From assembly GCA_038329865.1 (NCBI GenBank), contig JBBQNK010000005.1:1-64000 (forward strand): 64,000 nucleotides of DNA, in the 5' to 3' direction. Below are positions 3,519-56,565 of this stretch, one piece after another. The position numbers and the translations under genes were made by a program. Numbering within the stretch: position 1 is the first letter of the stretch; the number at the start of each line of letters is the position of its first letter. The notes under the pieces were generated by a model that did no database searches, was not told the origin of the DNA, and saw only the letters and a list, made by a program, of their open reading frames with translations. The stretch is from Tepidisphaerales bacterium (lineage in GTDB: Bacteria > Planctomycetota > Phycisphaerae > Tepidisphaerales > Tepidisphaeraceae).

Positions 3519-4115
3519 TCAGCGATTCAAATCCAAATTCCAGATCAGCATCGCCTCGTCGGCGATCTCCGCGCAGTGGCGGTATCGTTGCGGGTCGATC
3601 CGCACCAACTCGCATCCCATGCTCGCGTAGAACCGGCAGGCGGCGACGTTGACGTTTTGCGTTTCGATTTTCAGGTGCGAGCAGCCCTTCGTCTTCGTCC
3701 AATGCGACGCCGCTTGAAATAGTGCAGATCCGACGCCTCGCCGCTGGTGCGAAGATCGGACGCGAAGATCCCACAGCACGGCCAGATCACGTCGGCCGTC
3801 GAGCATCTCAACGCTGGGCGTATTCCACGCGACGGCCGCCCCGCCGACGGTTTCGCCGGCGTCGAGCGCGAGCCAGAATCCCCAGTTGGAGAGATCAAAC
3901 CGCCCCGGCCAATTCAGCGGCCCGCCGTCGGCGTAGGTGTCGTAGTTTTTGGTGTACGGCCTGTTCACCGGCCGCTCGGTGAAGCCGAGCGCGCCAAGGC
4001 CGGCCGGAATTTTTTCGACGACCATCTCCGATCGAACCTCGCACAACATCGGCACGCTCGCGTACTCCACCAGCCGATCCGCGCTGATTTTTTCGATCAC
4101 CACGGCCATGTGCAT
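3519..4115 (-). CDS. GNAT family N-acetyltransferase
   Basis: 198-aa protein with the acetyl-CoA-binding motif QRRGVGSALF and a GNAT-typical length. Confidence 0.65.
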   Translation of the reverse strand: MHMAVVIEKISADRLVEYASVPMLCEVRSEMVVEKIPAGLGALGFTERPVNRPYTKNYDTYADGGPLNWPGRFDLSNWGFWLALDAGETVGGAAVAWNTPSVEMLDGRRDLAVLWDLRVRSSHQRRGVGSALFQAASHWTKTKGCSHLKIETQNVNVAACRFYASMGCELVRIDPQRYRHCAEIADEAMLIWNLDLNR

Positions 4116-4403
4116 CGCTCCAGGAAATCAACGATCGGTTCGCGTCCGGTTGCAGTCGCATGGGCTACCAGCCCATGCTTTTGCGTTAAGAGGCATGGGC
4201 TGTTAGCACATGCGACGAAAATCCGATTTGCACTGCACCCCAACCCATTTATCCCGCCGCCAGTGTGCTCAGATCGTCTCACCCGCAAGCGGTTTTCGCG
4301 CGCAGAGATAAATCGGCGACGATTCCCTTGTACGCCGTCCGCCACGAATCCACCTGCACGCGGGCGAGCGCGGGAATATCGGATGCTTCGGCAGGACGGA
4401 TAT

Positions 4404-4934
4404 TCATTCGCGTGGGGCCACGGCGGGCGTGGGTTTGCCGTCGACGGGTTGCAGGCTTTCAACATCCACGGTGTAAAGGCTGCCGATGTATCCGTCGTCT
4501 GTCTTTTCAACTTTGATGTGCAATATCCCCACGATTCGCACCGGCGCTTCGATGTAAGTCACGCCGGCGTTGTCGGCGGTTTTGCACTTGAAAAAATCCT
4601 GCACACACGGTGGCCCGCGGAAGGACCACTTCGTTTTCGAATAGACCGCTTCGAAGCGAGTCACCTTCTCGCCGAGTTCCGCCCGGCACCACATCTCGCC
4701 GACGAACGTCACACGCTTTCCGTCCAGGTCCTGGAAGGATTTCGGAAGGTCATTGATCGTGCCGCTCGTCTGATCGAAGTCAAAATTCCCCAGCGTCTTT
4801 AAGTTGATCGACGTCGCGCTGGCCGCCGCCTGCGTGGTTGCGGGCTTTGTTGATGGCCGGGACGTTGGCCCGGCACCGAGTGCAAGCAGCGACACGGCAA
4901 TGACCACGAAAATTCGGCAAAGCGTTGTGTTCAT
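4404..4934 (-). CDS. hypothetical secreted protein
   Basis: An internal Met followed by a signal-peptide-like hydrophobic stretch (MNTTLCRIFVVIAVSLLALGAG). The 5' part of the 199-aa ORF upstream of this Met is probably not translated. Confidence 0.45.
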   Translation of the reverse strand: MNTTLCRIFVVIAVSLLALGAGPTSRPSTKPATTQAAASATSINLKTLGNFDFDQTSGTINDLPKSFQDLDGKRVTFVGEMWCRAELGEKVTRFEAVYSKTKWSFRGPPCVQDFFKCKTADNAGVTYIEAPVRIVGILHIKVEKTDDGYIGSLYTVDVESLQPVDGKPTPAVAPRE

Positions 4935-5113
4935 GGAAGGCCCCGACTTTCTCCGCATTTGGTAGGACAGACATTCCTGTCTGTCATGGACGGATGTACT
5001 CATCTGCCCATCTCACCTGACGAAAACCGCATCCGCGTACGAATCGAGGCGTTCCTCGCTTCGTGACAGACAGAAATGTCTGTCCTACTGAATGCGCAAA
5101 CGCAAACACGCGA

Positions 5114-6973
5114 TCACTGCAGCGGCGAAGGAATCGGCGTCTCCATCGGGCGGCGCCAGAGCAGGTGCATGCGCCAGTGCTGATCGTCCTTCGCGGGATA
5201 ATCCAGCCGGTAGTGTGTGCCGCGGCTTTCGGTTCTGGCATGGGCGGCCATCGTGATCAGCGTGCAGGCGGTGAGCATGTTCTGCAGTTCCCAGCCGTTC
5301 TCCGCGGCGGCGGGGCCGATGACTTTCGGGTCGAAGACCTTGTCCATCACATAGCGGCTCCAGAAGGTGATGATCTCGCGGGTTTCTTCCAGGCGCTGGC
5401 CGTCGCGCTCGATGCCGACGTTGCGCCACATCACGCTGCGCAGGCTGTTGCGAACGTCGGCGATGTCGAGCTCCGTCTTCGTGCTCGGCGGAACGCGGTG
5501 CTCTAGATGAATCGGAAATTTCACTTCCTCCGCGCACGCCGCGGCCGCGTGCGCGCCGGCGCGCGAGCCGTAGGCGAGCCCTTCGAGCAGTGAATTGCTC
5601 GCCAGGCGGTTTGCGCCGTGCAGGCCGGTGCAGGAGGCTTCGCCGATCGCGTACAGGCCCGGCAAACTCGTGCAGCCGAAGTCGTCGGCGTCGACGCCGC
5701 CCATGATGTAGTGCATGGCCGGGTGAATCGGGATCAGATCCTTCGCTGGGTCGATCTCGAACTCCACCAGCAGCTTGGCCAGCTGCGGGAAGCGCTCGGT
5801 AAACGCCGCGCCGGCGAGATGGCGAACGTCCAGGAAAACGTGCGTGAAATTCGTCTTGCGGATTTGCGCGATGATCGCGCGGCTGACGATATCGCGCGGC
5901 GCCAGCTCGCCGGCCGGGTCGTAATCTTTCATGAAGCGATAGCCGTTGCGATCGACGAGGTACGCCGCCTCGCCGCGGACGGCCTCGGTGATCAGCGCTC
6001 GGCTCGCACCGGCGACGTACAGCGTGGTCGGATGGAACTGCACCATCTCCATGTCTTTGAGCGTCGCGCCCGCGCGGTACGCCATCGCGTGCCCGTCGGC
6101 CGTCGCGACCGACGGGTTGGTCGTTTCACGATAAAGCTGCCCCGCCCCGCCGCTGGCGAGAATCGTTCGCTTGGCCCAGATGATGTTGACCTGCCCGTCG
6201 ATCATGACGATCGCGCCGAGGCATCGCGGGCCTTTCGGAAGCGACGCGGCGGGGCCCACGCCCAGCGGAGCAGAGGCGCCGGCGCGAAGCTCCGTCGAAG
6301 AGCCTGTTCCGTGAGTGCTCGTTGCGCCCGCTCCGCGCTCAGCCGAATCGCCTTCCCCGCGCTCAGTCGAGGCGCTTGTCCCGAGCGAAGTCGAAGGGCC
6401 CGCCCCGGACGAAGTCGAGGGATCGTCGGTGAGAAAATCGATCGCGAAACTGTTCTCGCTCATGCGTACGCCTTCGCGCGAGCGGACGGTTTTGATCAGC
6501 GTCTGCGCCAGCTCCTTGCCGGTCGCGTCGCCGTAGGCGTGAACGATCCGCGCGAACGAGTGCCCGCCCTCGCGGCCGAACGCCAGGTCGTGCGGGTTGC
6601 CGGGCTTCTTGTCAAAATGCGCGCCCCACTCAAGCAACTCCAGCACGCGCTGCGGCCCTTCCTTCACGGTGATATCCACCGCCCGCCGATCGCAAAGCCC
6701 CGCGCCGGCGGCGAGCGTGTCGTTCACATGCGACTCGATGGAATCCAGCGGCTGCAACACCGCCGCGATGCCGCCCTGCGCGTACCAGGTGTTGGATTGG
6801 TCGATCGTGTCCTTCGTGAGGAGCAGCACGTCGACGCCCGCGTCGGCAGCCGCGATCGCCGCGCGCAACCCCGCGACCCCGCCGCCGATGACTAGCACGT
6901 CAGTAAACTGCTGCGGCAGCCGTGCGGCTTTGAACGGGAGCAGGTAACGGCGCTGGGTGAGGGATTCAAGCAT
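5114..6973 (-). CDS. nadB: L-aspartate oxidase with a ~70-aa low-complexity insertion
   Basis: N-terminal FAD motif VLVIGGGVAGLRAA, the succinate-dehydrogenase/fumarate-reductase flavoprotein-like core (HYxMGG, RLASNSLLEG) and an internal Ser/Thr/Gly-rich insert (DDPSTSSGAGPSTSLGTSAST...). Confidence 0.85.
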   Translation of the reverse strand: MLESLTQRRYLLPFKAARLPQQFTDVLVIGGGVAGLRAAIAAADAGVDVLLLTKDTIDQSNTWYAQGGIAAVLQPLDSIESHVNDTLAAGAGLCDRRAVDITVKEGPQRVLELLEWGAHFDKKPGNPHDLAFGREGGHSFARIVHAYGDATGKELAQTLIKTVRSREGVRMSENSFAIDFLTDDPSTSSGAGPSTSLGTSASTERGEGDSAERGAGATSTHGTGSSTELRAGASAPLGVGPAASLPKGPRCLGAIVMIDGQVNIIWAKRTILASGGAGQLYRETTNPSVATADGHAMAYRAGATLKDMEMVQFHPTTLYVAGASRALITEAVRGEAAYLVDRNGYRFMKDYDPAGELAPRDIVSRAIIAQIRKTNFTHVFLDVRHLAGAAFTERFPQLAKLLVEFEIDPAKDLIPIHPAMHYIMGGVDADDFGCTSLPGLYAIGEASCTGLHGANRLASNSLLEGLAYGSRAGAHAAAACAEEVKFPIHLEHRVPPSTKTELDIADVRNSLRSVMWRNVGIERDGQRLEETREIITFWSRYVMDKVFDPKVIGPAAAENGWELQNMLTACTLITMAAHARTESRGTHYRLDYPAKDDQHWRMHLLWRRPMETPIPSPLQ

Positions 6974-10845: not shown

Positions 10846-11343
10846 TTACGCGGCGAGCGGCTGAGTGCTGAGGTACAGGCCGAGCATGCCGCGGTCCATT
10901 TCGTCCATGTCAACGAGCCGGCCGCAGACTTCGGCCTGGCTGTCGTCAATCTTCATCACGCGGGCGACGGTCATCCAGCCGATCCATTCACGCTTGGGCT
11001 TCGGATCATTGCTGCTTGTGTCGACGAACGGGCAGATGCCGGCGTAGTCGGGGAGGGCGAGCTTCACGCGAATTTGGCCGTCGGCTTTGATGTTGGCTTC
11101 CTGCGTGCGGATGCGAACCCCGCCGGCGGAGAGATCGACGAGCTGGCCCATTGTCTGGCCGGACTTGCGGGCGCCGTCCCAGCGCTCGACCGTGATGCCG
11201 GACTGTTCCAGATCATGCCGGCGGTGCTGGCGACGCTCGGATCCGGGCTTGGATTGGAACGGACCAATTTTCATCGAATTCTTTCGGCCGTGCTCGTGAA
11301 GGGTCGTCATCGCTGGCTCCTTTAGGACTGTGAACTGTGACAC
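10846..11343 (-). CDS. PilZ domain protein (putative c-di-GMP receptor)
   Basis: RRQHRR (RxxxR) and VDLSAGGVRIR (DxSxxG) PilZ signature pair. Confidence 0.65.
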   Translation of the reverse strand: MSQFTVLKEPAMTTLHEHGRKNSMKIGPFQSKPGSERRQHRRHDLEQSGITVERWDGARKSGQTMGQLVDLSAGGVRIRTQEANIKADGQIRVKLALPDYAGICPFVDTSSNDPKPKREWIGWMTVARVMKIDDSQAEVCGRLVDMDEMDRGMLGLYLSTQPLAA

Positions 11344-11704: not shown

Positions 11705-13243
11705 GTGTCTCTCTATCTGATGTATCTGTTCATCCTGTGGATGCTCTGGCGGCCGGGCCAAACGCCGATGACGGGGCACTTAGCCCTTCGCGTCAGCATG
11801 TTCTTCGGCTTTTACGTGCTGCTGATTCTCACCCTCGGGCTCTGGTCGCGATTCCTGGCCCGGCGGGTGGTGACGGCCAACCTCCACCGCAGCGTCAATC
11901 GATTCAACCGCATGGTGCATTACGCACGGTGGATGGTGCCGATCTGGTTCGCCGTCGGCATTTGGCTGCTGGGCTGGGGCGATTTGATGCAGATGATTTT
12001 CCCGCCCGTCAAAGAGGGCGAGCCGGTGGCGTGGATGGGATTTCATTCCCCGACGATGCTGCTGGGCATTCTGCCCGGGTTGCTGACGTGGATGGGCCTG
12101 TGGTGGGCGCAGTTTCCGGCCGACCGGGCGCTACGCGAGCAGAATCTGCTCAATCAGCTCGATGCCGACCTGCCGATCATCGACCCGCCGCGCTTCCGGC
12201 AGTATTTCAGCTCAAACTTTCGGATGCAGGTGCTAATGATCGGCATGCCGATGCTGCTGATCGTCGCGGTCGAAGACGTGCTGATGAAAGCCTGGACGCT
12301 TGTGGGCCAAACATCCAACGACACGGTCGAAGGGGTTTGCGCGGTGACGTCGCTGTTGCTGGTGTTCCTATTCGCGCCGCTGCTGCTGGTAAAGGTTCTC
12401 TCGACCGAGCCGCTGCCCGATTCGCCGTTACGGCGACGGCTGATGTCCATCAGCCGACGCGGGGGCGTGAAATGCCGGGATATTCTGCTTTGGAAAACCA
12501 ACGGCAACGTGAGCAACGCGGCCGTCATCGGGCTTGTGCCGCAGGTGCGGTACGTGCTGCTGAGCGACGCGCTGCTCGAGACGATGACCGACGAACACAT
12601 CGAGGCCGTCTTCGCCCATGAAATGGGGCACGTGGTTCACCGCCACATGGTGTGGTATGCGATCTTCTTCATTCTGTGCACCACCGGCGCCGGCGCACTG
12701 GCGGTTTCGTTTCAGAACCGCGTGACACTCGCCGGCCAACAGCTTTACGCGGTGGCCAGCATCGGAACGATGCTCTGGTTCTTCGGATTCTTGAGTCGCC
12801 AATGCGAGCGCCAGGCCGACGTATATGCCGCCCGGCTGATGGAACTCGAACACCGCAACACCTACGGCAGCACGAGCGAACTGGTATGGAACCCGGCCGA
12901 CCTCGTCGCGCCGCTCTCGCCGGCGATCGCGGGGGCGCAATTGGAGTTCATTCAATCGAGTGAGCGAACGTCGTTCCCGAATCCCAGCGTCGGCCGACAC
13001 GGCGCGGGACTTTTCTCAGCGGCCCTGCACCGCGTGGCGGTCGTCAACAACGTGCCGCTCGGAAAATTCGAGTGGCTGCACGGGAGCATCCAAAAGCGAC
13101 TGCATTTCATCCGCGAACTCGCCAGCCATCCCAACCGCACCGACCAGTTCGACCGCCAGATGCAGCGCATGTACGGCCTGCTGCTGCTGGGCTTTTTCGT
13201 GAGCCTTCTCTGGATCAGCGTGACGCAGCTGACGGGACGGTAG
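11705..13243 (+). CDS. membrane-embedded M48 family zinc metallopeptidase
   Basis: Multiple TM helices, HEMGHVVHRH (HExxH) and a downstream ERQADVYAA glutamate motif. Confidence 0.7.
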   Translation: MSLYLMYLFILWMLWRPGQTPMTGHLALRVSMFFGFYVLLILTLGLWSRFLARRVVTANLHRSVNRFNRMVHYARWMVPIWFAVGIWLLGWGDLMQMIFPPVKEGEPVAWMGFHSPTMLLGILPGLLTWMGLWWAQFPADRALREQNLLNQLDADLPIIDPPRFRQYFSSNFRMQVLMIGMPMLLIVAVEDVLMKAWTLVGQTSNDTVEGVCAVTSLLLVFLFAPLLLVKVLSTEPLPDSPLRRRLMSISRRGGVKCRDILLWKTNGNVSNAAVIGLVPQVRYVLLSDALLETMTDEHIEAVFAHEMGHVVHRHMVWYAIFFILCTTGAGALAVSFQNRVTLAGQQLYAVASIGTMLWFFGFLSRQCERQADVYAARLMELEHRNTYGSTSELVWNPADLVAPLSPAIAGAQLEFIQSSERTSFPNPSVGRHGAGLFSAALHRVAVVNNVPLGKFEWLHGSIQKRLHFIRELASHPNRTDQFDRQMQRMYGLLLLGFFVSLLWISVTQLTGR

Positions 13244-13608
13244 CGAAATTCGAATGACGAAATTCGAAATTCGATTGAAATTCGAATTACAAAAAGAATT
13301 CTGGCGTACGGGCTTCAGCCCGCGCGTCAGTCCTTCAACCAAATCACACTCTCCGGTAGCGCGTCAACTTGTATTGTTCCTCTCCCGGTATTCCGGGAAA
13401 GGGTAGGGTGAGGGTTCGGATTCCCGGGCCGAACGGTATTCAAATCGAAAAGACGTTGGCCTCGGTTGCGTTCTATCAATCGCCGATCGTATGAGCAAAC
13501 CGACAGAACCCTCACCCCGCCCTCTCCCGGCGTACCGGGAGAGGGAGAAATGCGCCTGCCGATTGAACGAATTTCGTCATTCAATCGAATTTCGTCATTC
13601 GAATTTTC
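13243..13608. mobile_element. MITE-like composite element with nested inverted repeats (outer cgaaattcgaa-type arms, inner family-B arms)
   Basis: The outer IR is ttcgaatgacgaaattcgaaattcg (13243-13290) against cgaatttcgtcattcaatcgaatttcgtcattcgaa (13562-13608). The inner IR is cctctcccggtattccgggaaagggtagggtgagggttc (13378-13416) against gaaccctcaccccgccctctcccggcgtaccgggagagg (13510-13549). The element has no ORF and lies between convergent genes. Confidence 0.55.
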
Positions 13609-13616
13609 ATCCACAC

Positions 13617-15836
13617 TCAGTGCGTCGTCACATGCGCTTCTTCGTGCCCGCCGTGCACCACGCCTGCGGGTGGTTCGGAAGCCGCAATGACCTGCACTGG
13701 AATCTCCGGCGGGAGCAGCGCTTCCAGACGGCGCTGGAACGTTCCCTTGATCAAGTGATACAGCACGCCCTGCCGGCTGCTGCCGATGAGGACTCGGTCG
13801 CAGCCGTAGATGGCGGCGTTTTCCGCCATCAGCTCGGCGGCGTCGGAGCCGGTGTCGTAGATCGGGAGCACCGGCACGCCCAACGAGTGGCCCCAGTCGA
13901 GGATCTTGCTGAAGGTCCGCAACGCCGCGAGATCGGAATCGATCGTCAGGCGTTTTTCGTCGTATTTGTACGACAGATTCACCTGCCGGATGAAGCAGAC
14001 GACGAGCGTGGAGTTGGATCGCTTCGCCTCGTCCAGCGCCGAGGGCGCCAGCGCTTCCGAGCCGTACGTCCCGAGCAGGATTTTCGGCTTCAGCAGCGCC
14101 GCCGGCGTGAGCTGCTCGGCGATCGCCTGTCGCAGCAGGCTGATTCGCGGACCCTTTCGGTCGGCCAGCCACTTGGTCAGCGCCCGCGCCGTCAGGCCGA
14201 TCGCCATGACGACGATCACGAACAGCAGCGCGTGCAACTTGGTGAACGCCAGCGAAACCCAGATCGCCAGCAGCACGATGCCCAGCAGCACCATCGGAAT
14301 CTTCCGGTGCATTCGGCGTAAGCGCGGGTGCGTCGCGCAGAGCGTGACGTTGATCGCCACCGCGCCGATCACGCCGATCGCGTAGAGCGCGGCCAGCGCT
14401 TCAAGATCGTGGCTGATCAACAGCACGAGAATCGGCACGGTCGCGGCGACGACGGCCGGCACCCACGGCACGCCGAAGCGGTTGAGCTTCTGCATGAAAA
14501 CGGGCAGCTCGCCGTCGCGGGCCATGAGGTATTGCACGGAGATCATGTCGGTCAGCGCGGTGTTCGTCGCCGAGAGCAGAAGGATGCCTCCGACGATCTG
14601 CACGAGTAGCTTGCCAATGCCGAGCGTGTAGTGATCGGTATACAAGCCCGCGAGGTACGCGAGCATGTCGGCGGTGTGATGCGAGCGGTCGAGCGGGAAG
14701 ACGGCGATCATCGCAAAAGCCAGGATCACGTTAAAGATCGCGACTTCCGCCGTCACGACCCAGATCGCTTTTTTAGCCGTGTGAGCGACGGGCTTTTTCA
14801 TCACGCCGGTGAGATTGGCGATCGCCTCCACGCCCGACAGCGCCAGCACGATCGATACGAACGCGATCCACATCTCGCCGGGGCGAATGTGCGTGCTGGT
14901 ATCGAGCAGGTTGGCCCAGTGGATGTGGTGGTAATCGATCTGCGGCAGCGCGAACGCGGTGATGAGCAGCGTGATGACGATCATGCCGACGGCCGCGAAG
15001 ATCGCGAACCCGCCGGTGTGCTTCGGGCCCATCAGGTTGAACATGCCGATGCCTGCAATAGCGACAATCGCCCACAGGCCCGGCGAATCCCACTCCAGCA
15101 GCGACTCGCTCGCCTGCGGCTGCGAGTCTTCGTAGAGCTGCTGCACGTCGGCGCGGTAACTCGCGTCGGCCGAGAGCGCCTTGAGCCGTTGGTACTCCTC
15201 CTCGGTCATCGGGCGATCGAACACCACCCACTGCTTGCCTTCAAAGACGAGCATTTGCTTGTCGGTGTCGTACTTGAGCAGGGCTTTGAAGACCGGCGAC
15301 GCCAGCACTTCCGCCGGCGGAGCGGCGGCTGCGAGGTGCGGGGCGTTTTCTACATTCAACCCCGCCCCGGCGTCTTTTACTTTCGATGTTTCGGTTCCTG
15401 CAGCAGCGGCGGCGGCGCTTTCGTCGGTCTGAACCTGGTGATGGCGCGGCAGGCCGAAATAGTGGAACGCATCGAGCGCGCTCAGGCTGGCCGTGACGGT
15501 GTAGTCGGCGAAGAGCAGCAGCGCGCCGACGACCGCGAGCGTTTTACTCTTGGATTTCGCCGCCGTGTAAACGCCGCCGCCGTCGGGGTAGATGCGGCAG
15601 ATCTGCGTGTACGCCCAACCGACGGCCACGATCAGAAGGCTCATCAGCAGGATGAGGTAAAAGCTCGTCCGCCCGGCGAAGAGGAACGCGAGCCCGAGCA
15701 CGTACAGTCGACTCGTGCCCCAGTCGCCGAACAAGAGCCCCGCCGCCTGCAGCCAGGTGACGTTGCGTGGCCGTTCAGCCGCGAGCAGGGATAAAGCCTC
15801 AGGCTTTGCCTTGCCACCAGTGGGAGCGGAATGCAT
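13617..15836 (-). CDS. KUP/APC-superfamily transporter fused to C-terminal universal-stress-protein (Usp) domain, paralogue 1
   Basis: About 12 TM helices. The N-terminal GDWGTSRLYVLGLAF resembles the KUP K+ transporter signature GD(I/L)GTSPLY. The C-terminal ~140 aa form a Usp-like alpha/beta domain (VVCFIRQVNLSY...VLIGSSRQGVLYHLIKGTF). It contains an Ala/Glu-rich low-complexity insert that is absent from paralogue 2. Confidence 0.7.
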   Translation of the reverse strand: MHSAPTGGKAKPEALSLLAAERPRNVTWLQAAGLLFGDWGTSRLYVLGLAFLFAGRTSFYLILLMSLLIVAVGWAYTQICRIYPDGGGVYTAAKSKSKTLAVVGALLLFADYTVTASLSALDAFHYFGLPRHHQVQTDESAAAAAAGTETSKVKDAGAGLNVENAPHLAAAAPPAEVLASPVFKALLKYDTDKQMLVFEGKQWVVFDRPMTEEEYQRLKALSADASYRADVQQLYEDSQPQASESLLEWDSPGLWAIVAIAGIGMFNLMGPKHTGGFAIFAAVGMIVITLLITAFALPQIDYHHIHWANLLDTSTHIRPGEMWIAFVSIVLALSGVEAIANLTGVMKKPVAHTAKKAIWVVTAEVAIFNVILAFAMIAVFPLDRSHHTADMLAYLAGLYTDHYTLGIGKLLVQIVGGILLLSATNTALTDMISVQYLMARDGELPVFMQKLNRFGVPWVPAVVAATVPILVLLISHDLEALAALYAIGVIGAVAINVTLCATHPRLRRMHRKIPMVLLGIVLLAIWVSLAFTKLHALLFVIVVMAIGLTARALTKWLADRKGPRISLLRQAIAEQLTPAALLKPKILLGTYGSEALAPSALDEAKRSNSTLVVCFIRQVNLSYKYDEKRLTIDSDLAALRTFSKILDWGHSLGVPVLPIYDTGSDAAELMAENAAIYGCDRVLIGSSRQGVLYHLIKGTFQRRLEALLPPEIPVQVIAASEPPAGVVHGGHEEAHVTTH

Positions 15837-16464
15837 AGGTCGAATCGCTTTCGATTGGAGCGATCTGACGCGACCATCCGTCACGGTTCACAACGAACTT
15901 GCGTTCGTGGCTACCGACGGATTCGGATCTTCACGTCAAAAAGCCCAGACGTTCAACACCCTCAACGATTTTCATCGTTGAAACGCGGAAACGTCTTCAT
16001 CGCACAGCGCTGGCTCGGAAGGTGATCAACACTGAATGTGCTGATCCACAGAGGCTTCGCCTCTGCACAGTGGAGCTTGCGTTGCGCCCTTTCACAGGCC
16101 TACGGGGTTAGCTGACGGGCTAGGGCTTGAAAGTGCCCCGGGACTTTTGTGAGTCCCTTAGCCCCCGGTGAGCAGTAACTTCCTTCTGCTCACCCTTGGG
16201 TTCCCCGCGTCGCACCATCGGGCACGACCTCGGCGGTCACATAACACGGCTGATAGCGTGACACGTTTTTGGGAGATGTCAATGGTCTTTTTGCACACGC
16301 GTTTTGCACATTCGCTCAATCGTTTGCAAGGGCGGGAGTTATGAACAATCTTGGGGAAAAGTTGAGTTTCGGGGCTCGAATTTCGGGTTTCAGGGATGAT
16401 GGATTTGATCCACTCAGGACTCGATACTCGCAAACCCAGACCTCAGGACCCGGAGCCCCAGGAG

Positions 16465-18474
16465 TCACTTCACCGGCTCCGTCTCTTTCAACTTGTCGGC
16501 GGCTTCGGTGTCGATTTGTGCTTGCGTCGGCTCGGTCGTGTGGACGACTTCGACCTGCATGTCGGGCGGCAGGAGCGATTCGAGCTTTCGCTGGAAGCTC
16601 CCCTTGATCAGGTGGTGCAGCGAGCTTCGCCGGCTTGAGCCAATCAGCACTTTATCCACGCCGTTGATGGCGGCGGTCTCGGCGATCAGCTCCGCCGAGT
16701 TCGGGCCGGTGTCGTACATCGGGATGATCGGCACGCCGAAACGGTGGCCGAGATCGAGGAAGTCGACGAACAGCGCCTGGGCGGCCGGGTCGGTGTCGAG
16801 CGTGAGCGTGACGTCGCTCTCGACCTTATACGACAGCGCGACTTCGCGCACGTAGCAGACGACGAGCGCGGCATTGAGCGATTTGGCCAGTTCCAGCGCC
16901 GGCGTGGCCAGCCGGGAAGAGCCGGCGGTCGAGAGCAGGATCTTCGGCTTCATCAGCGCTTCGGGCGTGAGTTGCTCGACGATCGCCTGGCGCAGCAGCG
17001 AAGGCTTGGGCCGTTTCGTCGCTGCGAAGCGCGTGAGCTGCCGCGCCGTCAGGCCGACGACCATCACGATCGACACGAAGATCAGCGCGTGAATCTTGGT
17101 GTACGCGAGCGTCGCCCACACGCCGATCAGCAGCAGGCCGATCGCCAGCATGAAAATCTTGCGCCGCACCTTGCGCAAGCGCGGGTGGAACGCCGTCAGC
17201 AAACAGTTGATTGAGACCGCCCCGACAATGCCGATCGCGTAGAGCTGCGCGAGCTTTTCAAGATCGTGAAAGAACAGCAGCACGGCAGCGGGGACGATCG
17301 TCGCAATCACGCAGCCGATCCACGGCGAGCCGAAGCTGTTGAGCTTCTGCAGCACCTGCGGGAGCTCGCTGTCGCGGCTCATGACGTACACGGTGCTCAT
17401 CAGTGCGCCGATGGCGGTGTTGGTCGCGCTCAGCAGCAGCACGCCGCCGACGATTCGCACCGGCCATTCGCCCCACGGGCCGACGTAATGCCCGGCGAGG
17501 AACGCGAGCATGTCTTCCTTGTGCCCTTCGCGTCCCAGGCCCGACGTGGAGACCATGATTAGCGCCAGCAGCAGGTTGAAGACCGCCACCTCGGCCGCCA
17601 CGAGCCAGATCGATTTGCTCGCGGTTTTGTAGACCGGCTTGTGCATCACGCCGGTGAGATTGGCGATCGCCTCCACGCCTGATAGCGCAAGCACCACCGC
17701 CACGAACGCCTGCCACATGTCCAGCGGCGGCTGGTGTAAAGTGCCGACGTTTATCTCCGACCATTTCAGCTGCGGCAGCGCAAAGAGCGTGACCAGGAGC
17801 GTGATGGCGATCATCCCCACCGCCGCCATGATCGCCGGGCCGGCCGTGTGCTTGGGGCCGAGGAGATTCAGTGCGCCGATCAGAAAAATCGCGAAGATCG
17901 CCCACAATCCGGGGCTGTCCCAGTGCCACAACGTCGGCGTTTTGAAGGATTTCCTCTCCAGCACCTTGGCGGGCTCGCCACTGGGCTGGGTTTCCTCGAT
18001 TTTCACGACGACGGTCTCGACCTTGTCGGATTCGAGCCGCACGTCGTCGCCGGCGTCTTCTTCAGCCACCAGCGCCGCGCGGTGCTCACCAAGCCCGAAG
18101 TAGTGGAACGCTTCCACGGCGCTGAGCGAAGCGGTGATCGTGTAGTCGGAAAATAAGAGCAGCGCCCCTACCACGCCGAGCAGCGCATTGCGATGCCTCG
18201 CCGCGGTGTAAACGCCGCCGCCGTCGGGGTAGATTCGGCAGACCTGCGTGTACGCCCAGGCGACAAGCAGAATGAGAATGCTCATCGCCGCGATGAGGAA
18301 AAAGCTGCTCCGCCCCGCGACCAGGAACGCCAGGCCCAGCACGTACAGCCGGCTGGTGCCCCAATCGCCGAACAGCAGACCGGCCGCCCCGAACCATCCG
18401 AGATTGCGCGGGCGCTTGCTGGCCAGAAGGGAAAGGGCTTGCGGTCGATGCGGATCGGCGTGTGAATCGCTCAT
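16465..18474 (-). CDS. KUP/APC-superfamily transporter fused to C-terminal Usp domain, paralogue 2
   Basis: It shares near-identical N-terminal blocks (GDWGTSRLYVLGLAF, CRIYPDGGGVYTAA) with the ORF at 13617-15836 and has the same domain order. Confidence 0.7.
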   Translation of the reverse strand: MSDSHADPHRPQALSLLASKRPRNLGWFGAAGLLFGDWGTSRLYVLGLAFLVAGRSSFFLIAAMSILILLVAWAYTQVCRIYPDGGGVYTAARHRNALLGVVGALLLFSDYTITASLSAVEAFHYFGLGEHRAALVAEEDAGDDVRLESDKVETVVVKIEETQPSGEPAKVLERKSFKTPTLWHWDSPGLWAIFAIFLIGALNLLGPKHTAGPAIMAAVGMIAITLLVTLFALPQLKWSEINVGTLHQPPLDMWQAFVAVVLALSGVEAIANLTGVMHKPVYKTASKSIWLVAAEVAVFNLLLALIMVSTSGLGREGHKEDMLAFLAGHYVGPWGEWPVRIVGGVLLLSATNTAIGALMSTVYVMSRDSELPQVLQKLNSFGSPWIGCVIATIVPAAVLLFFHDLEKLAQLYAIGIVGAVSINCLLTAFHPRLRKVRRKIFMLAIGLLLIGVWATLAYTKIHALIFVSIVMVVGLTARQLTRFAATKRPKPSLLRQAIVEQLTPEALMKPKILLSTAGSSRLATPALELAKSLNAALVVCYVREVALSYKVESDVTLTLDTDPAAQALFVDFLDLGHRFGVPIIPMYDTGPNSAELIAETAAINGVDKVLIGSSRRSSLHHLIKGSFQRKLESLLPPDMQVEVVHTTEPTQAQIDTEAADKLKETEPVK

Positions 18475-18644
18475 GAGTCTGAAGTCTTGATTTTCAATTC
18501 AAACGAACCGCCCGAGTCGCGTTTCACACGACACAATCCTGCGCGATATCAGGCGGCAGACAGGTTGACTTGCTTCGCTGCAAATTCCCCGGCAATCGTC
18601 AACTTTTCCTGCGCTCACACCCTATCAGAGACGAGGCTGACCGG

Positions 18645-19874
18645 TCAAAGATTATGGCCCATCTTTTCTTTTTTAGTTTGGAGATATTTTTGATTATGAC
18701 GGCCCGGCACGATGCGGATCGGCACTTCTTCGACCACTTTCAGCCCGTACCCTTCGATGCCGTAAATCTTCTTCGGATTGTTGGTCATGATGCGGATATT
18801 CTGTAGGCCCAAATCGCGCAGAATCTGGCTGCCGATGCCGTAATCTCGCTTGTCGACGGGCAGGCCTAGCCGCTGGTTGGCTTCGACGGTGTCGAGCCCC
18901 TTTTCCTGCAGCGCGTAAGCGTGGAGCTTGTTCGCCAGGCCGATGCCGCGGCCTTCCTGGCGCAGGTAGAGCAGCACGCCGGAGCCGGCCTCTTCGATCA
19001 TCGTCATCGCGGCCGAAAGCTGGTCGCCGCAATCGCATTTGCCGGAGCCGAAGATGTCGCCAGTGAGGCACTCGCTGTGGACGCGCACGAGCGTGGGCGA
19101 CGGGTGCGGCACCATCTTGCCGGCACCATCGAGCTCGCCGATTCCGCCCTTACATAACGCCAGGTGCGGCTGCGGGTCGATCGCGCTCTGGTACGCGTGC
19201 AGCCGGAAGTCGCCCCACGCTGTTGGCAGCGTGATGCTTTCGATCCGCTTCACGAACTGCTCGCGCTTGAGGCGGTAGCTGATCAGGTCGGCGATCGTCG
19301 CCATCTTCAGATCGTACTGCTGACAATACTTTTCAAGGCCAACGCGGCGCATCATCTCGCCGTCTTCCTCCATGATCTCACAGATCACCGCCGCGGGCTT
19401 CAGGCCGGCCAATCGACAGAGATCGACGCTTCCTTCGGTCTGCCCCGATCGCACGAGCACCCCGCCGTCGCGGGCGCGCAGCGGATTGATATGGCCCGGC
19501 CGATTCAGATCCTGGGGCTGCGCGTCCTCGGCGATGGCGACCTGGATCGTCATCGCGCGGTCTTTCGCGCTCACGCCGGTGGAAACGCCGAAGCGTTTGT
19601 GTGCGTCAACGGTCACGGTGAAGGCCGTGCCGAGTTGGGCGGTGTTGAACTGAGTTTGCGGATGCAGGCGCAGTTTTTCGCAGCGATCTTCGGTCAGCGC
19701 CAGACACACCACGCCGCGGGCATGGCGGACCATGAAGTTGATCGCCTTGGCGTCGCAGAACTCCGCTGCGTAGACGATGTCCCCTTCGTTCTCGCGGTCT
19801 TCATCATCAACAAGGACGATCGGCTTGCCCTTCTTGAGATCTTCAATCACTTCTGGAATCGTTGCGAACGACAT
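18645..19874 (-). CDS. ribBA: bifunctional 3,4-dihydroxy-2-butanone-4-phosphate synthase / GTP cyclohydrolase II
   Basis: The DHBP synthase N-half (DDEDRENEGD, RxxxGxxCL) and the GTP cyclohydrolase II C-half with its zinc cysteines (CLTGDIFGSGKCDCG) are both present in 409 aa. Confidence 0.9.
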   Translation of the reverse strand: MSFATIPEVIEDLKKGKPIVLVDDEDRENEGDIVYAAEFCDAKAINFMVRHARGVVCLALTEDRCEKLRLHPQTQFNTAQLGTAFTVTVDAHKRFGVSTGVSAKDRAMTIQVAIAEDAQPQDLNRPGHINPLRARDGGVLVRSGQTEGSVDLCRLAGLKPAAVICEIMEEDGEMMRRVGLEKYCQQYDLKMATIADLISYRLKREQFVKRIESITLPTAWGDFRLHAYQSAIDPQPHLALCKGGIGELDGAGKMVPHPSPTLVRVHSECLTGDIFGSGKCDCGDQLSAAMTMIEEAGSGVLLYLRQEGRGIGLANKLHAYALQEKGLDTVEANQRLGLPVDKRDYGIGSQILRDLGLQNIRIMTNNPKKIYGIEGYGLKVVEEVPIRIVPGRHNQKYLQTKKEKMGHNL

Positions 19875-19915
19875 AAATCACGTACTCCTTAACTTCTCTC
19901 AATTCTCAAACGCGG

Positions 19916-20014
19916 ATTATTACCACAGAGGCCAAAGAGGCTCACAGAGAGGGCAGAGAGAGGAAATCCAAAACACTTCTCTGTGCTCTCTGTGAAGCTT
20001 TGTGAGCTCTGTGG
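19916..20014. repeat. palindromic repeat, family C (CACAGAG / CTCTGTG arms)
   Basis: ccacagaggccaaagaggctcacagagagggcagagagagg ... ctctgtgctctctgtgaagctttgtgagctctgtgg. A related copy lies at 33538-33610. This one sits between the pgsA stop and the ribBA start. Confidence 0.55.
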
Positions 20015-21552: not shown

Positions 21553-21627
21553 GGATTTGGTATTTGGTATTGGGTATTTGGTTTGATCCTGATACCAAAT
21601 ACCCAATACCCAATACCAAATACCCAC
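21552..21627. repeat. long perfect hairpin built from tandem heptamers (GGTATTT/GGTATTG)
   Basis: gggatttggtatttggtattgggtatttggt - ttgatcctga - taccaaatacccaataccaaatacccac. AT-richer than the flanks. It lies between two co-directional genes. Confidence 0.65.
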
Positions 21628-21640
21628 AACCAGAGAAACC

Positions 21641-22534
21641 ATGTCCATCTTCGGTTCCAACCAATACAACTCGCAACCTTCCCGCGGCATCAGCCTCCGC
21701 TTCATCATCGGCCTGGTGATTGCCGGCATCGGCGTCGTCTCGTATCTCACGCATACCGAGATCAATCCCGTCACCGGCGAAAAGCAGCACATTTCGATCT
21801 CGGCCGACCAGGAGATCGCGCTCGGCCTGCAGGCGGCTCCGCAGATGGCGGCGGAGATGGGCGGCGTGGTCGACCAGCGCGACCCGCGCGAGCAGAACGT
21901 GCAGCGCATCGGCCAGCAACTGCTGCAACGCAGCGACGCGGGAAAGAGCCCGTACACCGGCTATTTTCATTTCAACCTCTTGGCCGACCCGCAGACGATC
22001 AACGCCTTCAGCCTGCCCGGCGGGCAGGTGTTCATCACCGTGGCGCTTTACGACCGGCTGGAGAATGACGCGCAGGTGGCCGGCGTGCTCGGTCACGAGA
22101 TCGGCCACGTCATCGGCCGGCACGGCGCGGAAAACATGGCGACCGGCAACCTCGGCAACATGATCGTGACGGCCGTCGCCGTCGGCGCCAGCGACCGCAA
22201 CAACGGCCAATTCGCCGCTGCCGCTGCCGCCATGGCGAACCAGATGTTCCAGCTCAAATACTCCCGCTCCGACGAATTCGAAGCCGACCATTTCGGCCTG
22301 CAGTTCATGAGCCAGGCGGGTTACGACCCTTCACAGATGCGCCGCGTGATGGAAATTTTGAAACAATCCGCGAGAGGCTCCGGCGGCTCGGCGATCTTTC
22401 AAACGCACCCGGACCCGGACGCACGCATCGACCGGATCGATCAATTTTTGAAAGAAACGTATCCCAGCGGCGTGCCGGGGAATCTGACGACGGGGAATGC
22501 ATTGCGAGCGTCACGGCAGCGCGACGTGGAGTGA
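21641..22534 (+). CDS. M48 family zinc metallopeptidase (LoiP/BepA-like, single N-terminal TM)
   Basis: HEIGHVIGRH (HExxH) and the downstream EFEADHFG glutamate motif. Confidence 0.75.
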   Translation: MSIFGSNQYNSQPSRGISLRFIIGLVIAGIGVVSYLTHTEINPVTGEKQHISISADQEIALGLQAAPQMAAEMGGVVDQRDPREQNVQRIGQQLLQRSDAGKSPYTGYFHFNLLADPQTINAFSLPGGQVFITVALYDRLENDAQVAGVLGHEIGHVIGRHGAENMATGNLGNMIVTAVAVGASDRNNGQFAAAAAAMANQMFQLKYSRSDEFEADHFGLQFMSQAGYDPSQMRRVMEILKQSARGSGGSAIFQTHPDPDARIDRIDQFLKETYPSGVPGNLTTGNALRASRQRDVE

Positions 22535-49686: not shown

Positions 49687-51315
49687 CTATTTCGCCATCG
49701 AGACGGCCGGCGCGGCGGCGTTGACCGACGGCACTGCGGTGAAGTGCATGCGGCCGTAGTTTTCGGTCAGTTTGTTCAGCGGACTGTAACCGACGAACAT
49801 CACCACCAGCATGATCGCGCACATGAGTGAGACCGCGACGCCCAGCGGGTTGCCCATGAAGGCCGGCTGATCGGAGTTGAGCAGGAACATCGACCGCACC
49901 ACGCGCATGTAGAAGTAGAGGCTGAGCACCGTGTTGATCAGGATGACCACCACCAGCAGCCACCACCAACCGCCGGTCTGGATCAGGGCCATGAGGATGT
50001 TGAACTTCGCGAAGAATCCCGCGAGCGGCGGTAAGCCAACGAAGCTGAACATGAACGCCGCCATGCAAACTGCCAGCACCGGGTTTCGCCGCGAAAGGCC
50101 GGCGTACCCTTCGAGCGTTTCAATGCCCGTCTGCTTGAACACCAGGCCGGCCACGGTGAACGCGCCCAGGTTCATGAACAGGTACACCGCGAGATAAAAC
50201 AGAATCGTGCGGGCGGAGATCGAAGTCGGATCGGTCACGCTGCCGGCCTTGAGCAGCAGGGACATCGCACACAGCATGTAACCGGCATGGGCGATGGAGC
50301 TGTAAGCGAGCAGGCGCTTGATGTTGTTCTGCACGAAAGCGGCCGTGTTGCCGAGGGTGGCGGAGAGAGCGCCCATCACGCCGAGCACGATCGCGATGAC
50401 CGCCGGCGCGGAAAGCAGTTCGCCGTTCATGCCGTTGAAGTGGTACGCGTCGGCGATGTTGTTCACGACGCGCAGCAGCAGGACAAGGGCCGCGCCCTTG
50501 CTGGCGACGGAGAGGAACGTCGTCACTTCGATGGCCGCGCCTTCGAACACGTCCGGGCACCAGAAGTGGAACGGCACGGCCGCGATTTTGAAACCGATGC
50601 CGACGACCAATCCAAAAACCGCGACAACGAGCAGCGCCGTTCCGCCGGTGGTGGCGGGCATCTTAGAGGCCAACTCGGAGAGGTTCAGCGTGCCGTACAG
50701 CCCGTAGAGCAGCGACATGCCGTACGTCATCACCGCGCTGGTGGCGGCGCCGAACAGCACGTACTTGAGGCTCGCTTCAGCGTCGGTCTTGTTGGTCTTA
50801 CGGAAGCCGGCCAGCACGTAGCTGGGGAAGCTGGCGAGTTCCACCGCGAGCAGGATCATGAGCAGGTTGTTGGCCGACGCCATGAGGGCCATGCCGGTGG
50901 TCGCACCGAGGAGCAGGACGAAGAACTCAGGGCCGTCGCCTTCATGCATGTCGGCGGCACTGGTGGCGAACCACATCATGATCACGCCGATCACGAAGAC
51001 CAGCAGCAGGATTTTCCAGAGGAACGCGATCGGATCGGCCACCAGCATCGGCGCGAACTTAGTGGCCTGCAGGCCCGCATCAGGGCTGACGTATTGAACG
51101 TAAAGAAGGCTGAGCAGCGCGATCACCAATCCCGCCAGTGCCACCAGGCCGCACGCGGTGTTCGACTTTTTCACGAAGAACGGCGTGAGCAGCACCGCGA
51201 CGATCGTGCCGATGAGCGTGAGCTCGGCGATGAACGGGCGCAGCTCCGTCCAGCCGGGGATGAAGGGTAAGCCGATACTTGCAAGAGACAGGATCATCAT
51301 TCGCTTTCGTAGCAT
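49687..51315 (-). CDS. nuoN: NADH-quinone oxidoreductase subunit N
   Basis: 14-TM antiporter-like subunit; its position after nuoM. Confidence 0.85.
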   Translation of the reverse strand: MLRKRMMILSLASIGLPFIPGWTELRPFIAELTLIGTIVAVLLTPFFVKKSNTACGLVALAGLVIALLSLLYVQYVSPDAGLQATKFAPMLVADPIAFLWKILLLVFVIGVIMMWFATSAADMHEGDGPEFFVLLLGATTGMALMASANNLLMILLAVELASFPSYVLAGFRKTNKTDAEASLKYVLFGAATSAVMTYGMSLLYGLYGTLNLSELASKMPATTGGTALLVVAVFGLVVGIGFKIAAVPFHFWCPDVFEGAAIEVTTFLSVASKGAALVLLLRVVNNIADAYHFNGMNGELLSAPAVIAIVLGVMGALSATLGNTAAFVQNNIKRLLAYSSIAHAGYMLCAMSLLLKAGSVTDPTSISARTILFYLAVYLFMNLGAFTVAGLVFKQTGIETLEGYAGLSRRNPVLAVCMAAFMFSFVGLPPLAGFFAKFNILMALIQTGGWWWLLVVVILINTVLSLYFYMRVVRSMFLLNSDQPAFMGNPLGVAVSLMCAIMLVVMFVGYSPLNKLTENYGRMHFTAVPSVNAAAPAVSMAK

Positions 51316-51375
51316 GGGCTACCAGCCCATGTCATGGTGCGCACCGGGTCACGGGCTGGTAGCCCGTGCTACGCT

Positions 51376-52998: not shown

Positions 52999-53034
52999 AG
53001 CAATTCTCTTATTTCAACCGGCCAGCATGCCCGG

Positions 53035-55377: not shown

Positions 55378-55447
55378 AATTCAGTCGGCAGCGGGCAGCG
55401 GGCAGCGGGCAGTTCATACTGCCCGCTGCCCGCTGCCATCTGCCCGC

Positions 55448-55798
55448 TTATCCTTTAAGGTTCGAAGCACGCTCCACGTCGATCGTTGTAAAATTGTTGT
55501 AGAAGTTCAGGAAAATCGCCAACGCCACCGCCGCCTCAGCAGCGGCCAGAACGATCACGAAGACCGCGAAGATCTGCCCGTTCAGCGCCGGCTCGCCGTG
55601 CGTGCCGGCGTAGCTGAAATAGTTGAACGCGACGAGATTCACGTTGGCCGCGTTCAACACCAACTCCACGCCCATCAGAATGCCGATCGCGTTGCGCTTG
55701 AGGAGGATCGTCATCAACCCGCAAACGAACAGAAACGCGCCCAGCACCAAATAATGGTGCAGGCCGATCGTCGTAACGGTGATGGCGAGAACGTTCAT
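55448..55798 (-). CDS. nuoK: NADH-quinone oxidoreductase subunit K
   Basis: A ~100-aa 3-TM protein with the conserved LNAANVNLVAF region and the Glu residues. Confidence 0.85.
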   Translation of the reverse strand: MNVLAITVTTIGLHHYLVLGAFLFVCGLMTILLKRNAIGILMGVELVLNAANVNLVAFNYFSYAGTHGEPALNGQIFAVFVIVLAAAEAAVALAIFLNFYNNFTTIDVERASNLKG

Positions 55799-55825
55799 TC
55801 CTCTTCCCTGTTTACTAACTGGTCG

Positions 55826-55885
55826 CCCCGTTTCAGCGGGTCGTCTGCGATTTCAAGAGCGACCCGCTGATGCGGGGCGACCGGT
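55826..55885. repeat. imperfect 22-bp-arm palindrome in the nuoK-nuoJ intercistronic spacer
   Basis: gtcgccccgtttcagcgggtcg ... cgacccgctgatgcggggcgac. Confidence 0.5.
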
Positions 55886-55891
55886 TTAGCT

Positions 55892-56479: not shown

Positions 56480-56488
56480 TTTTGTTTC

Positions 56489-56557
56489 GGCGTTGGGCGT
56501 TGAGCGTTAGGCGTTGGGGGTCGATTGATCCCTAACGCCTAACGCCAAACGCCTAAC
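56489..56557. repeat. long hairpin built from tandem heptamers (GGCGTTG/AGCGTTA) in the nuoH-nuoJ spacer
   Basis: ggcgttgggcgttgagcgttaggcgttggggg - tcgattgatc - cctaacgcctaacgccaaacgcctaac. The loop shares ttgatcc with the hairpin at 21552-21627. Confidence 0.65.
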
Positions 56558-56565
56558 TACTTTCG

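Follow-up and report, generated by a model that had tools for sequence, protein, structure and literature searches.

The question raised by this locus is what two adjacent, transporter-like genes with a universal stress protein (Usp) tail move across the membrane, and under what control. Both are encoded on the minus strand of the window, the 64,000-nucleotide stretch of DNA analyzed here. The first, P1 (16465-18474), begins 170 nt past the stop codon of ribBA and encodes 669 amino acids from an ATG start. The second, P2 (13617-15836), encodes 739 amino acids from an ATG at position 15836. An alternative GTG start at 15884 would give a protein of 755 amino acids (13617-15884); the 739-residue form is preferred because alignment with P1 and with orthologues favors it. 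The initial annotation of two co-oriented paralogous genes of these lengths agrees with the open reading frames. Its description of their N-terminal blocks as near-identical was overstated: the paralogue alignment that it called for gives 67% identity across the N-terminal 144 residues and 56% across the C-terminal 500 (BLASTP), with a variable loop separating the two blocks, although the motif GDWGTSRLY is indeed identical in P1 and P2. The same order of P1, spacer and P2 is also present in related genomes (L002, L003, and L030), and thus the pairing is not due to chance. The wider family comprises more than 7,000 clusters at 90% identity and occurs on at least 591 genomic stretches. Where a source names its members, they are called "amino acid transporter" or "universal stress protein."

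Pfam assigns P1 to AA_permease_2 (PF13520; E = 5e-20) and Usp (E = 3e-7). With AA_permease_2 the two proteins score 72 and 102 bits, above its cut-off of 27, and K_trans (PF02705) has no match at E ≤ 1 for either. NCBIfam returns amino-acid-permease models only, at 8-25 bits vs cut-offs of 380-870. These calls could be taken to indicate APC permeases for amino acids, polyamines or osmolytes that carry a Usp regulatory tail and are under c-di-AMP control, an option raised by the fact that c-di-AMP also governs osmolyte uptake. We consider this unlikely, in part given the very low NCBIfam scores. The permease label itself is uninformative, because KimA (YdaO), the K+/H+ symporter of Bacillus subtilis, is likewise scored by Pfam only as AA_permease_2 and had been annotated as an amino-acid permease; the profile therefore does not define the substrate. 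Searched against all PDB sequences, the family profile (A2) finds KimA first (6S3K; E = 3.2e-25, 92 bits) and the amino-acid transporter ApcT second (E = 5e-9), so that E-values favor KimA by 16 orders of magnitude. Profile-profile alignment (hhalign) with the KimA family reaches 99.1% probability (E = 1.3e-18, 466 columns), and with Escherichia coli Kup 90.4% (E = 1.4e-6, 352 columns). The AlphaFold2 (AF2) model of P1, a body of 12 transmembrane helices (TM) followed by a beta/alpha domain, has the KimA structures 8b70, 8b71, and 6s3k as its top PDB matches in Foldseek, with alignments of ~660 columns. KimA is the closest homologue of solved structure by both sequence profile and fold; the KimA subfamily is characterized by a domain-swapped homodimer, and the models built here are monomers.

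The authors who described KimA called it a KUP subfamily. It lacks the KUP xFGD motif in TM1 and has SSDALSSVAY instead (PMC6994465). In the family studied here TM1 carries a KUP-type motif, and for this reason we do not file it inside the KimA subfamily proper. The motif GDWGTSRLY lies at 18343-18369 in P1 (G36-Y44, with D37 a putative K+ ligand and Y44 a putative outer gate) and at 15702-15728 in P2, both on the minus strand. The TM1 block, LLFGDWGTSRLY, and the signature of E. coli Kup, VVYGDIGTSPLY, line up in every column (hhalign 90%, E = 1.4e-6), and the block fits the KUP-type signature (V/I)(F/Y)GDxGTSPLY; the pattern [LM]L[FY]GDWGTS[RK] is found in nearly all diverse family representatives. 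The earlier proposal, which combined a KUP-like signature with an APC-like body and a Usp tail, is borne out, and the placement of the membrane domain in an unrelated family without this signature, which would have spoken against it, is not what Pfam gives. The family probably represents a PVC-superphylum lineage placed between KimA and the canonical Kup/HAK/KT transporters. Its bridging position, nearer to Kup than KimA is, has to be read with the low diversity of the KimA alignment in mind (Neff 1.5 vs 3.6), and the apparent nearness may partly be an effect of it.

The residues that would handle the ion are retained. According to hhalign, D37 of P1 aligns with D36 of KimA and D23 of Kup, Y44 with KimA Y43, D110 with KimA D117 and Kup E116, and E268 with KimA E233 and Kup E229; further equivalences between P1 and KimA are T114 = T121, S118 = S125, S265 = T230, and Y412 = Y377. 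The roles of these KimA and Kup residues were established by mutagenesis (PMC6994465). Among 86 full-length family members, D37, Y44, T114, S265, E268, and Y412 are 100% conserved, S118 99% and D110 90%. The equivalents of the KimA K+ site (D36/Y43/T121/S125/T230/Y377) and proton site (E233) are therefore 99-100% conserved, and the essential acidic residues of Kup (D23, E116, and E229) are matched by residues conserved at 100%, 90%, and 100%, respectively. A KUP signature in TM1 and a K+-ligand Asp invariant in 86/86 members argue further against amino-acid permeases. Another monovalent cation (NH4+, Na+, or Cs+) as substrate, or a role mainly as K+ exporters or sensors, would be compatible with a substrate assignment drawn from homology only, with the Ser found at the KimA T230 position in all 86 members, and with a large periplasmic loop that is absent from KimA. 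Against this stand the retained K+-binding and H+-coupling residues and the finding that KimA T230A has no phenotype (PMC6994465). In B. subtilis, moreover, the riboswitch class described below governs the importers kimA and ktrAB, whereas the effect of c-di-AMP on exporters is a stimulation at the protein level (PMC10636490). We regard a different cation or an export role as very improbable.

The loop just mentioned connects TM3 and TM4 and is enlarged in P2 (residues 127-250; 15087-15458, minus strand), where it is predicted to be periplasmic. Alignment of the loops of 15 relatives delineated an Ala-rich stretch at its start, a DAG(D) motif and a conserved module of ~70 residues (15117-15329) common to L002b, L015, L018, and L011. 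AF2 folds the loop into three short strands plus two helices (pLDDT 50-75), and a search of 5.8 billion proteins returned no match to it. An Ala/Glu-rich low-complexity insert had been noted initially; the Ala-rich start is present, in the 739-residue protein, but the insert is more than low complexity because the module is conserved in four orthologues.

Between P1 and P2 lies the decisive element of the locus, a c-di-AMP riboswitch that was absent from the initial annotation. The aptamer (RF00379, ydaO/yuaA leader; 16082-16245, minus strand) scores 63.7 bits in cmscan against a gathering score of 38 (E = 2e-12 for the whole window) and covers positions 1-134 of the 134-position model. It starts 219 nt past the P1 stop codon and ends 245 nt ahead of the P2 ATG, on the same strand as both. 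This is the sole Rfam match in the 64 kb, and an Rfam E-value scan of 15700-19000 gave no second credible RNA and no riboswitch upstream of P1. Orthologous positions in L002, L003, L030, and others carry RF00379 at 49-67 bits. Across 79 related loci drawn from Planctomycetota, Verrucomicrobiota, and Omnitrophota, 28 of the 30 riboswitches found are directly upstream of a family gene, on the same strand. The neighbor-joining tree separates a P1-type clade, in which one of nine members has a riboswitch, from a P2-type clade, in which 16 of 25 do; P1 and P2 of the window group with P1 and P2 of L002, respectively (79% identity). A terminator-like hairpin followed by UUUUU (15938-15997, minus strand; stem dG -23.8 kcal/mol by RNA folding, then a T5 run in the DNA) lies between the aptamer and P2 and is a candidate expression platform, and the whole P2 leader has a z-score of -4.7 vs shuffles. 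The hairpin is not consistently present among orthologues. No diadenylate cyclase gene was found in the 64-kb window. Riboswitches of this class act in B. subtilis by terminating the transcription of kimA and ktrAB, while ktrCD is constitutive (PMC10636490). Genes unrelated to K+ are also under c-di-AMP riboswitches in other phyla, for example a Corynebacterium cell-wall peptidase in the available text of PMC9960051. Planctomycetota do not appear in the phylum list for this riboswitch in the available text of PMC6488665, nor in the literature searched.

A C-terminal Usp-like domain in both proteins, as originally described, was confirmed by a profile match to PF00582 and an alpha/beta fold. 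In P1 it spans residues 508-645 (16540-16953, minus strand; Pfam Usp 31.4 bits), and in P2 residues 583-720 (13677-14090, minus strand), inside the 56%-identical block, where AF2 predicts five strands and four helices. The family profile also matches Usp structures including MJ0577 and TeaD. As in KimA, a cytosolic domain of the nucleotide-binding type with this composition follows TM12 (AF2, hhalign, and Foldseek), and in the alignment the first half of the P1 domain falls on beta1-alpha1-beta2 of the KimA domain. The canonical ATP-binding Usp motif, G-x2-G-x9-G-(S/T) together with a beta1-alpha1 Asp (PMC8214093), is missing. P1 has G612-x2-R615-x9-G625-S626; the second Walker Gly is R/K/Q/H in 84/86 members (G-x2-[RKQH]-x9-G), the first Gly, which contacts the ribose, does not vary, and R/Y/A/K take the place of the Asp in 86/86. 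The "stress-regulated" module of the initial annotation is better described as regulated by c-di-AMP/K+, and the Usp domain, lacking this motif, is a putative stress sensor.

One tentative possibility is that the Usp domain is a c-di-AMP receptor, as are the KimA domain and KdpD-USP, in which case P2 would be controlled at both the RNA and protein levels and P1 at the protein level only. The domain occupies the same place as the c-di-AMP-binding domain of KimA, with which its beta1-alpha1-beta2 part aligns. None of the 86 members has the Asp characteristic of ATP-binding Usps, a residue that would clash with c-di-AMP, and replacement of the second Walker Gly alongside an invariant first Gly is also a feature of KdpD-USP (PMC8214093). 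Of the KimA residues that contact c-di-AMP (R337, P479, and H579-S582), R337 is replaced by Q in P1 and by V in P2 and is kept as R in only 21/86 members, P479 aligns with S515, and H579-S582 fall outside the hhalign alignment; A481/G482 align with A517/G518.

We favor, with a probability of roughly 70%, the reading that P1 and P2 arose by an old duplication and both import K+ in a proton-coupled manner, P2 being repressed by c-di-AMP and P1 being riboswitch-free. Each protein has a 12-TM LeuT-fold body that, by homology, would bind K+ where TM1 and TM6 are unwound, through D37, T114, and Y412 (P1 numbering), with Y44 as outer gate, E268 as proton-coupling site and D110 as inner, trans-inhibition site. 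The Usp-fold domain sits where KimA has its nucleotide-binding domain. High c-di-AMP is a signal of K+ sufficiency in studied bacteria; here it would turn P2 expression off through the leader riboswitch, and P1 would provide basal K+ uptake.

A bolder and doubtful extension is that the PVC-wide family constitutes a third, hitherto unrecognized branch of KUP/KimA K+/H+ symporters, in which the non-canonical Usp domain serves as a new type of receptor for c-di-AMP or another nucleotide within a two-level c-di-AMP/K+ circuit, with possible heterodimers of the paralogues and an external regulatory input through the conserved periplasmic loop module of P2. On this proposal, the combination of a KimA-like body and a Kup TM1 signature would link KimA to canonical Kup, and the circuit would be a Firmicute-style one in Planctomycetes and Verrucomicrobia.

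If these proteins are K+ importers, K+ homeostasis is mis-annotated in soil and freshwater Planctomycetota, Verrucomicrobiota, and Omnitrophota. A c-di-AMP riboswitch ahead of a KimA-type gene is textbook logic in Bacillus; its counterpart at P2 extends that logic to a little-studied bacterial group and adds no new principle. The linkage widens the c-di-AMP/K+ regulon to phyla without c-di-AMP work in the searchable literature. With its KimA-like core, Kup TM1 motif and Usp tail, the family is a useful comparator for K+ binding by KUP transporters and for their gating by cytosolic nucleotide-binding domains.

Among known systems, KimA (PDB 6S3K, 8B70) is the best match in sequence profile and structure, sharing the 12-TM LeuT fold, the cytosolic domain, the K+ and H+ residues (with Ser for T230) and the ydaO riboswitch ahead of the gene. 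Identity to KimA is only ~17-19%, and the family differs from it in the KUP xFGDxGTSxLY motif of TM1 (PMC6994465), in a long TM3-TM4 loop, in the non-conserved R337 and in its hosts, PVC bacteria rather than Firmicutes; the KimA cytosolic domain has been described as PPAT-like without a Pfam Usp call, whereas that of the family is a recognizable Usp. Kup (TrkD) of E. coli, of the KUP/HAK/KT transporters, shares the TM1 signature (V/L)(Y/F)GDxGTSxLY and three essential acidic residues (PMC6994465). Unlike Kup, the family has no K_trans match, the hhalign probability of 90% falls short of certainty, and the alignment stops at Kup residue 417, leaving the Kup C-terminal domain unaligned with Usp. 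ApcT and other APC amino-acid transporters have the same fold and Pfam family but a far weaker profile match and no such cation signature in TM1. The Usp domain of KdpD (PDB 7JI4) binds c-di-AMP and is fused to a kinase, whereas that of the family is fused to a transporter and lacks the KdpD motif AxSxSx2N(Y/F). As in the kimA and ktrAB leaders of Bacillus and the kdpFABC leader of the B. cereus group, a full-length RF00379 aptamer lies 5' of a K+-transporter-like gene; here, by contrast, it is set within a tandem pair of paralogues, behind the stop codon of the upstream one, with a long leader to the ATG and an expression platform in which no intrinsic terminator is clearly conserved. The combination of one riboswitch-free and one riboswitch-controlled putative uptake system parallels that of KtrCD with KimA/KtrAB.

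The two co-oriented open reading frames that the initial annotation described as a transporter-Usp pair are both present on the minus strand. P1 (16465-18474, -) starts with ATG and encodes 669 aa, and P2 (13617-15884, -) encodes 755 aa from a GTG codon, or the 739 aa noted earlier if the ATG at 15836 is used. In BLASTP, their N-terminal 144 aa are 67% identical and their C-terminal 500 aa 56%, with a variable loop between; their GDWGTSRLY copies are identical. Pfam assigns AA_permease_2 to both P1 and P2 (E 5e-20 and 4e-29) and Usp to P1 (31.4 bits, cut-off 24), and the same search of the two proteins gave no match to K_trans. In NCBIfam, the only matches for either were GABA and ethanolamine permeases, far below threshold. 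The main alternative to K+ transport, that P1 and P2 are amino-acid or osmolyte permeases under c-di-AMP control, leans on these Pfam labels, which are also given to KimA; we consider this reading improbable.

Profile comparisons place the pair close to K+ transporters. Single-sequence phmmer searches of the PDB with P1 and P2 returned nothing meaningful (only SRP54 and YetJ at E 0.008-0.1), and KimA was reached by profiles only. A profile of 21 close homologues matched KimA (6S3K), a K+ transporter of Bacillus subtilis, with E 2e-11, the next match being at 0.002, and a profile from 29 diverse members of the family of KimA/KUP-like transporters with a C-terminal Usp-fold domain matched KimA at E 3.2e-25, against 5e-9 for the best amino-acid transporter, ApcT. 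A Foldseek search with an AF2 model of P1 (pLDDT 70.6) gave KimA entries as its top three matches (E 2e-16). This comparison of a predicted structure agrees with kinship to KimA yet discriminates less, so K+ and amino-acid transport are not separable by fold alone; it is the sequence evidence that separates them. With hhalign, the family aligned to the KimA family at 99.1% probability (E 1.3e-18, 466 columns) and to Escherichia coli Kup at 90.4% (E 1.4e-6, 352 columns), pairing AAGLLFGDWGTSRLYVLG of the family with AIGVVYGDIGTSPLYTLR of Kup, whereas the KimA family and Kup aligned at only 1%. On these scores the family would fall between KimA and Kup, the KimA alignment being shallow (Neff 1.5 versus 3.6).

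The residues that serve transport in KimA and Kup are conserved. In KimA, D36 and Y43 are essential, T121 and Y377 aid K+ binding, S125 contributes to high-affinity binding, E233 couples protons and D117 forms an inner K+ site, with D23, E116 and E229 as Kup counterparts (Tascon et al., PMC6994465). By hhalign, the P1 equivalents of the KimA/Kup transport residues are D37, Y44, T114, S118, Y412, E268 and D110. In a set of 86 full-length members drawn from 79 genomes, the invariant positions are D37, Y44, T114, S265 (corresponding to T230), E268 and Y412, and S118 and D110 are conserved in 99% and 90%, respectively. Unlike other KUPs, KimA lacks the VFGD/IYGD motif in TM1 (PMC6994465); the family differs from KimA in carrying the xFGD motif, and hhalign aligns its TM1 block with that of Kup. 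The KUP signature suspected in the initial annotation is thus genuine.

The spacer between the genes contains a feature that the initial annotation, correct about the transporter-Usp pair, had overlooked. A full-length c-di-AMP riboswitch (RF00379, ydaO/yuaA leader; 63.7 bits, gathering score 38, E 2e-12) at 16082-16245 (-) is the sole Rfam match in the whole window and lies in the 628-nt P1-P2 spacer, 219 nt past the P1 stop and 245 nt ahead of the P2 ATG. Control of kimA by a c-di-AMP riboswitch is a textbook case, and since ydaO is the former name of kimA, P2 shares its leader RNA class with its closest characterised homologue. RNA folding indicates that the P2 leader is more stable than shuffled controls (z -4.7) and reveals a strong, terminator-like hairpin followed by UUUUU at 15938-15997 (-; dG -23.8), a candidate expression platform for P2; among 23 orthologous aptamers, a terminator followed inconsistently. 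The start of P1 is 170 nt beyond ribBA, and no other RNA family scored credibly around it in Rfam. A scan of 13300-20000 detected no sigma-70 promoter. A perfect TTGACA occurs at 16277-16282 (-), 31 nt ahead of the aptamer, with no acceptable -10 hexamer at 16-19 nt spacing. Searching all six frames of the window for the diadenylate-cyclase motifs GTRH and RHRxA yielded no credible gene.

The surroundings are ordinary chromosomal DNA (G+C 57-63%) with ribBA, gyrB, nuoH-N and a PEP-utilising enzyme, a context confirmed by the run of NADH:quinone oxidoreductase membrane-arm genes at 49687-58017 (-; NuoH, J, K, L, M and N types by Pfam). Neighbours of P1 and P2 encode RibBA, a CDP-alcohol phosphatidyltransferase, a small PilZ-domain protein (10846-11343, -) and two M48-family metallopeptidases flanking the region (11705-13243, +, a 512-aa membrane form with HEMGH; 21593-22534, +); they give no functional link to the pair.

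The family is large: it forms over 7,200 clusters at an identity level of 90% and 1,808 at 50% (E<=1e-3), and occurs in at least 591 genomic stretches. The closest relatives are from Tepidisphaerales MAGs (Phycisphaerae, Planctomycetota), with identities of up to 79% for genome loci and up to 84% for proteins in databases. All listed loci belong to Planctomycetota, Verrucomicrobiota or Omnitrophota, except for two that bear the labels Chlorobiaceae and Bacillota and four that lack a phylum label. The contig titled as a Bacillota MAG (JBLNDH010000519.1) carries a riboswitch and a family gene 56-63% identical to the window proteins that nests within the Tepidisphaerales P2 clade, and is probably mis-binned.

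Rfam was run on each of the 79 loci retrieved, and their family genes were mapped. Thirty c-di-AMP riboswitches were found in 29 loci, and 28 of them are directly upstream of a family gene on the same strand, in 17 of the 29 loci of Tepidisphaerales type and in 11 of the 50 distant ones (32-38% identity). The P1-riboswitch-P2 tandem is kept in three loci (L002, L003 and L030) and, with extra spacing, in two more (L005 and L026). In a neighbour-joining tree the Tepidisphaerales sequences form two clades, with a riboswitch in 1/9 of the P1-type and 16/25 of the P2-type sequences; the copies have retained different regulation. P1 and P2 each match their own counterpart in L002 at 79% identity, which, with the two-clade tree, indicates an old duplication, at roughly order level. 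A recent tandem duplication was rejected: identity between P1 and P2 is 58%, and their 79% orthologues in L002 are arranged in the same order.

Independent tandem pairs occur in one Phycisphaeraceae locus (L067) and two Verrucomicrobiota loci. In the latter (L041:3782-7729 and L079:3766-7679), a single riboswitch precedes two successive family genes, separated by 3 nt in L041 and overlapping by 8 nt in L079. First and second copies form separate clades in the tree, and the arrangement would fit heterodimeric transporters. L005 has two riboswitches back to back on opposite strands (6413-6891). The plus-strand copy (6727-6891, 67 bits) precedes a family gene, and the minus-strand copy (6413-6625, 58 bits) precedes a 340-aa ORF (5287-6309) with no Pfam match, followed by a 395-aa ORF (3999-5186) that looks like a histidine kinase. 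In locus L012, a riboswitch at 94-318 and the family gene (start ~680) are on different strands, and the riboswitch is directed off the contig end.

The paralogues also differ in the TM3-TM4 loop, which measures 62 aa in P1 but 124 aa in P2 (aa 127-250; 15087-15458, -, by loop alignment). We infer a periplasmic location from the topology of the LeuT fold, from RPRN, which is conserved ahead of TM1, and from the N-in/C-in arrangement of KimA. A short acidic DAGD motif occurs in this loop in nearly all Tepidisphaerales members. The P2 loop consists of an Ala-rich stretch and then a ~70-aa module (SPVFKALLKYD...VFDRPMT...LYE) confined to a subset of P2-type proteins: P2, the second L002 gene and those of L015, L018 and L011. 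The module had no match among 5.8 billion proteins and was in none of 390 proteins retrieved. A low-confidence AF2 model, built essentially on a single sequence, suggests that it has three short strands along with two helices.

The C-terminal domain is a genuine Usp fold, not of the ATP-binding type; the corresponding part of the diverse-member profile matches MJ0577 and other Usp structures. ATP-binding Usp domains have a beta1-alpha1 Asp and G-x2-G-x9-G-(S/T) (PMC8214093). Across the 86 members this Asp is never present, being replaced by R, Y, A or K (Ala in P1, Tyr in P2), and the Walker-like motif reads G-x2-[R/K/Q/H]-x9-G-[D/S/H], with its first and last Gly invariant. The c-di-AMP-binding KdpD-USP likewise lacks the Asp and the full Walker motif and keeps the first Gly, but its binding motif is absent here. 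The cytosolic domain of KimA is described as PPAT-like (PMC10284832) and has Ala-Gly at the aligned position; the family alignment reaches its first strand-helix-strand, and KimA R337 is not conserved. We offer c-di-AMP as a possible, rather doubtful ligand of the Usp domain, a hypothesis and not a finding.

Our literature search found no paper on the family, nor on c-di-AMP or KimA in Planctomycetes. In several phyla, Verrucomicrobia among them, c-di-AMP riboswitches have been predicted ahead of ktr, trk, kdp and kup genes (PMC6488665). We rate the family as a branch of its own within the KimA/KUP clade, one that has been mis-annotated. It combines the TM1 motif of Kup with a Usp-type tail and an insert in the periplasmic loop, and is deployed as paralogue pairs under differing regulation. 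Judging from homology, residue conservation, the riboswitch with its conserved linkage, and the paralogue split, we put at about 70% the probability that P1 and P2 are proton-coupled K+ importers of which P2 alone is repressed through its leader. Both would import K+ coupled to protons; P1 expression would be free of c-di-AMP control at the RNA level, and c-di-AMP binding to the leader would repress P2. B. subtilis offers a parallel: its ktrCD is constitutive, and riboswitches control kimA and ktrAB, which are induced when K+ is low (PMC10636490).
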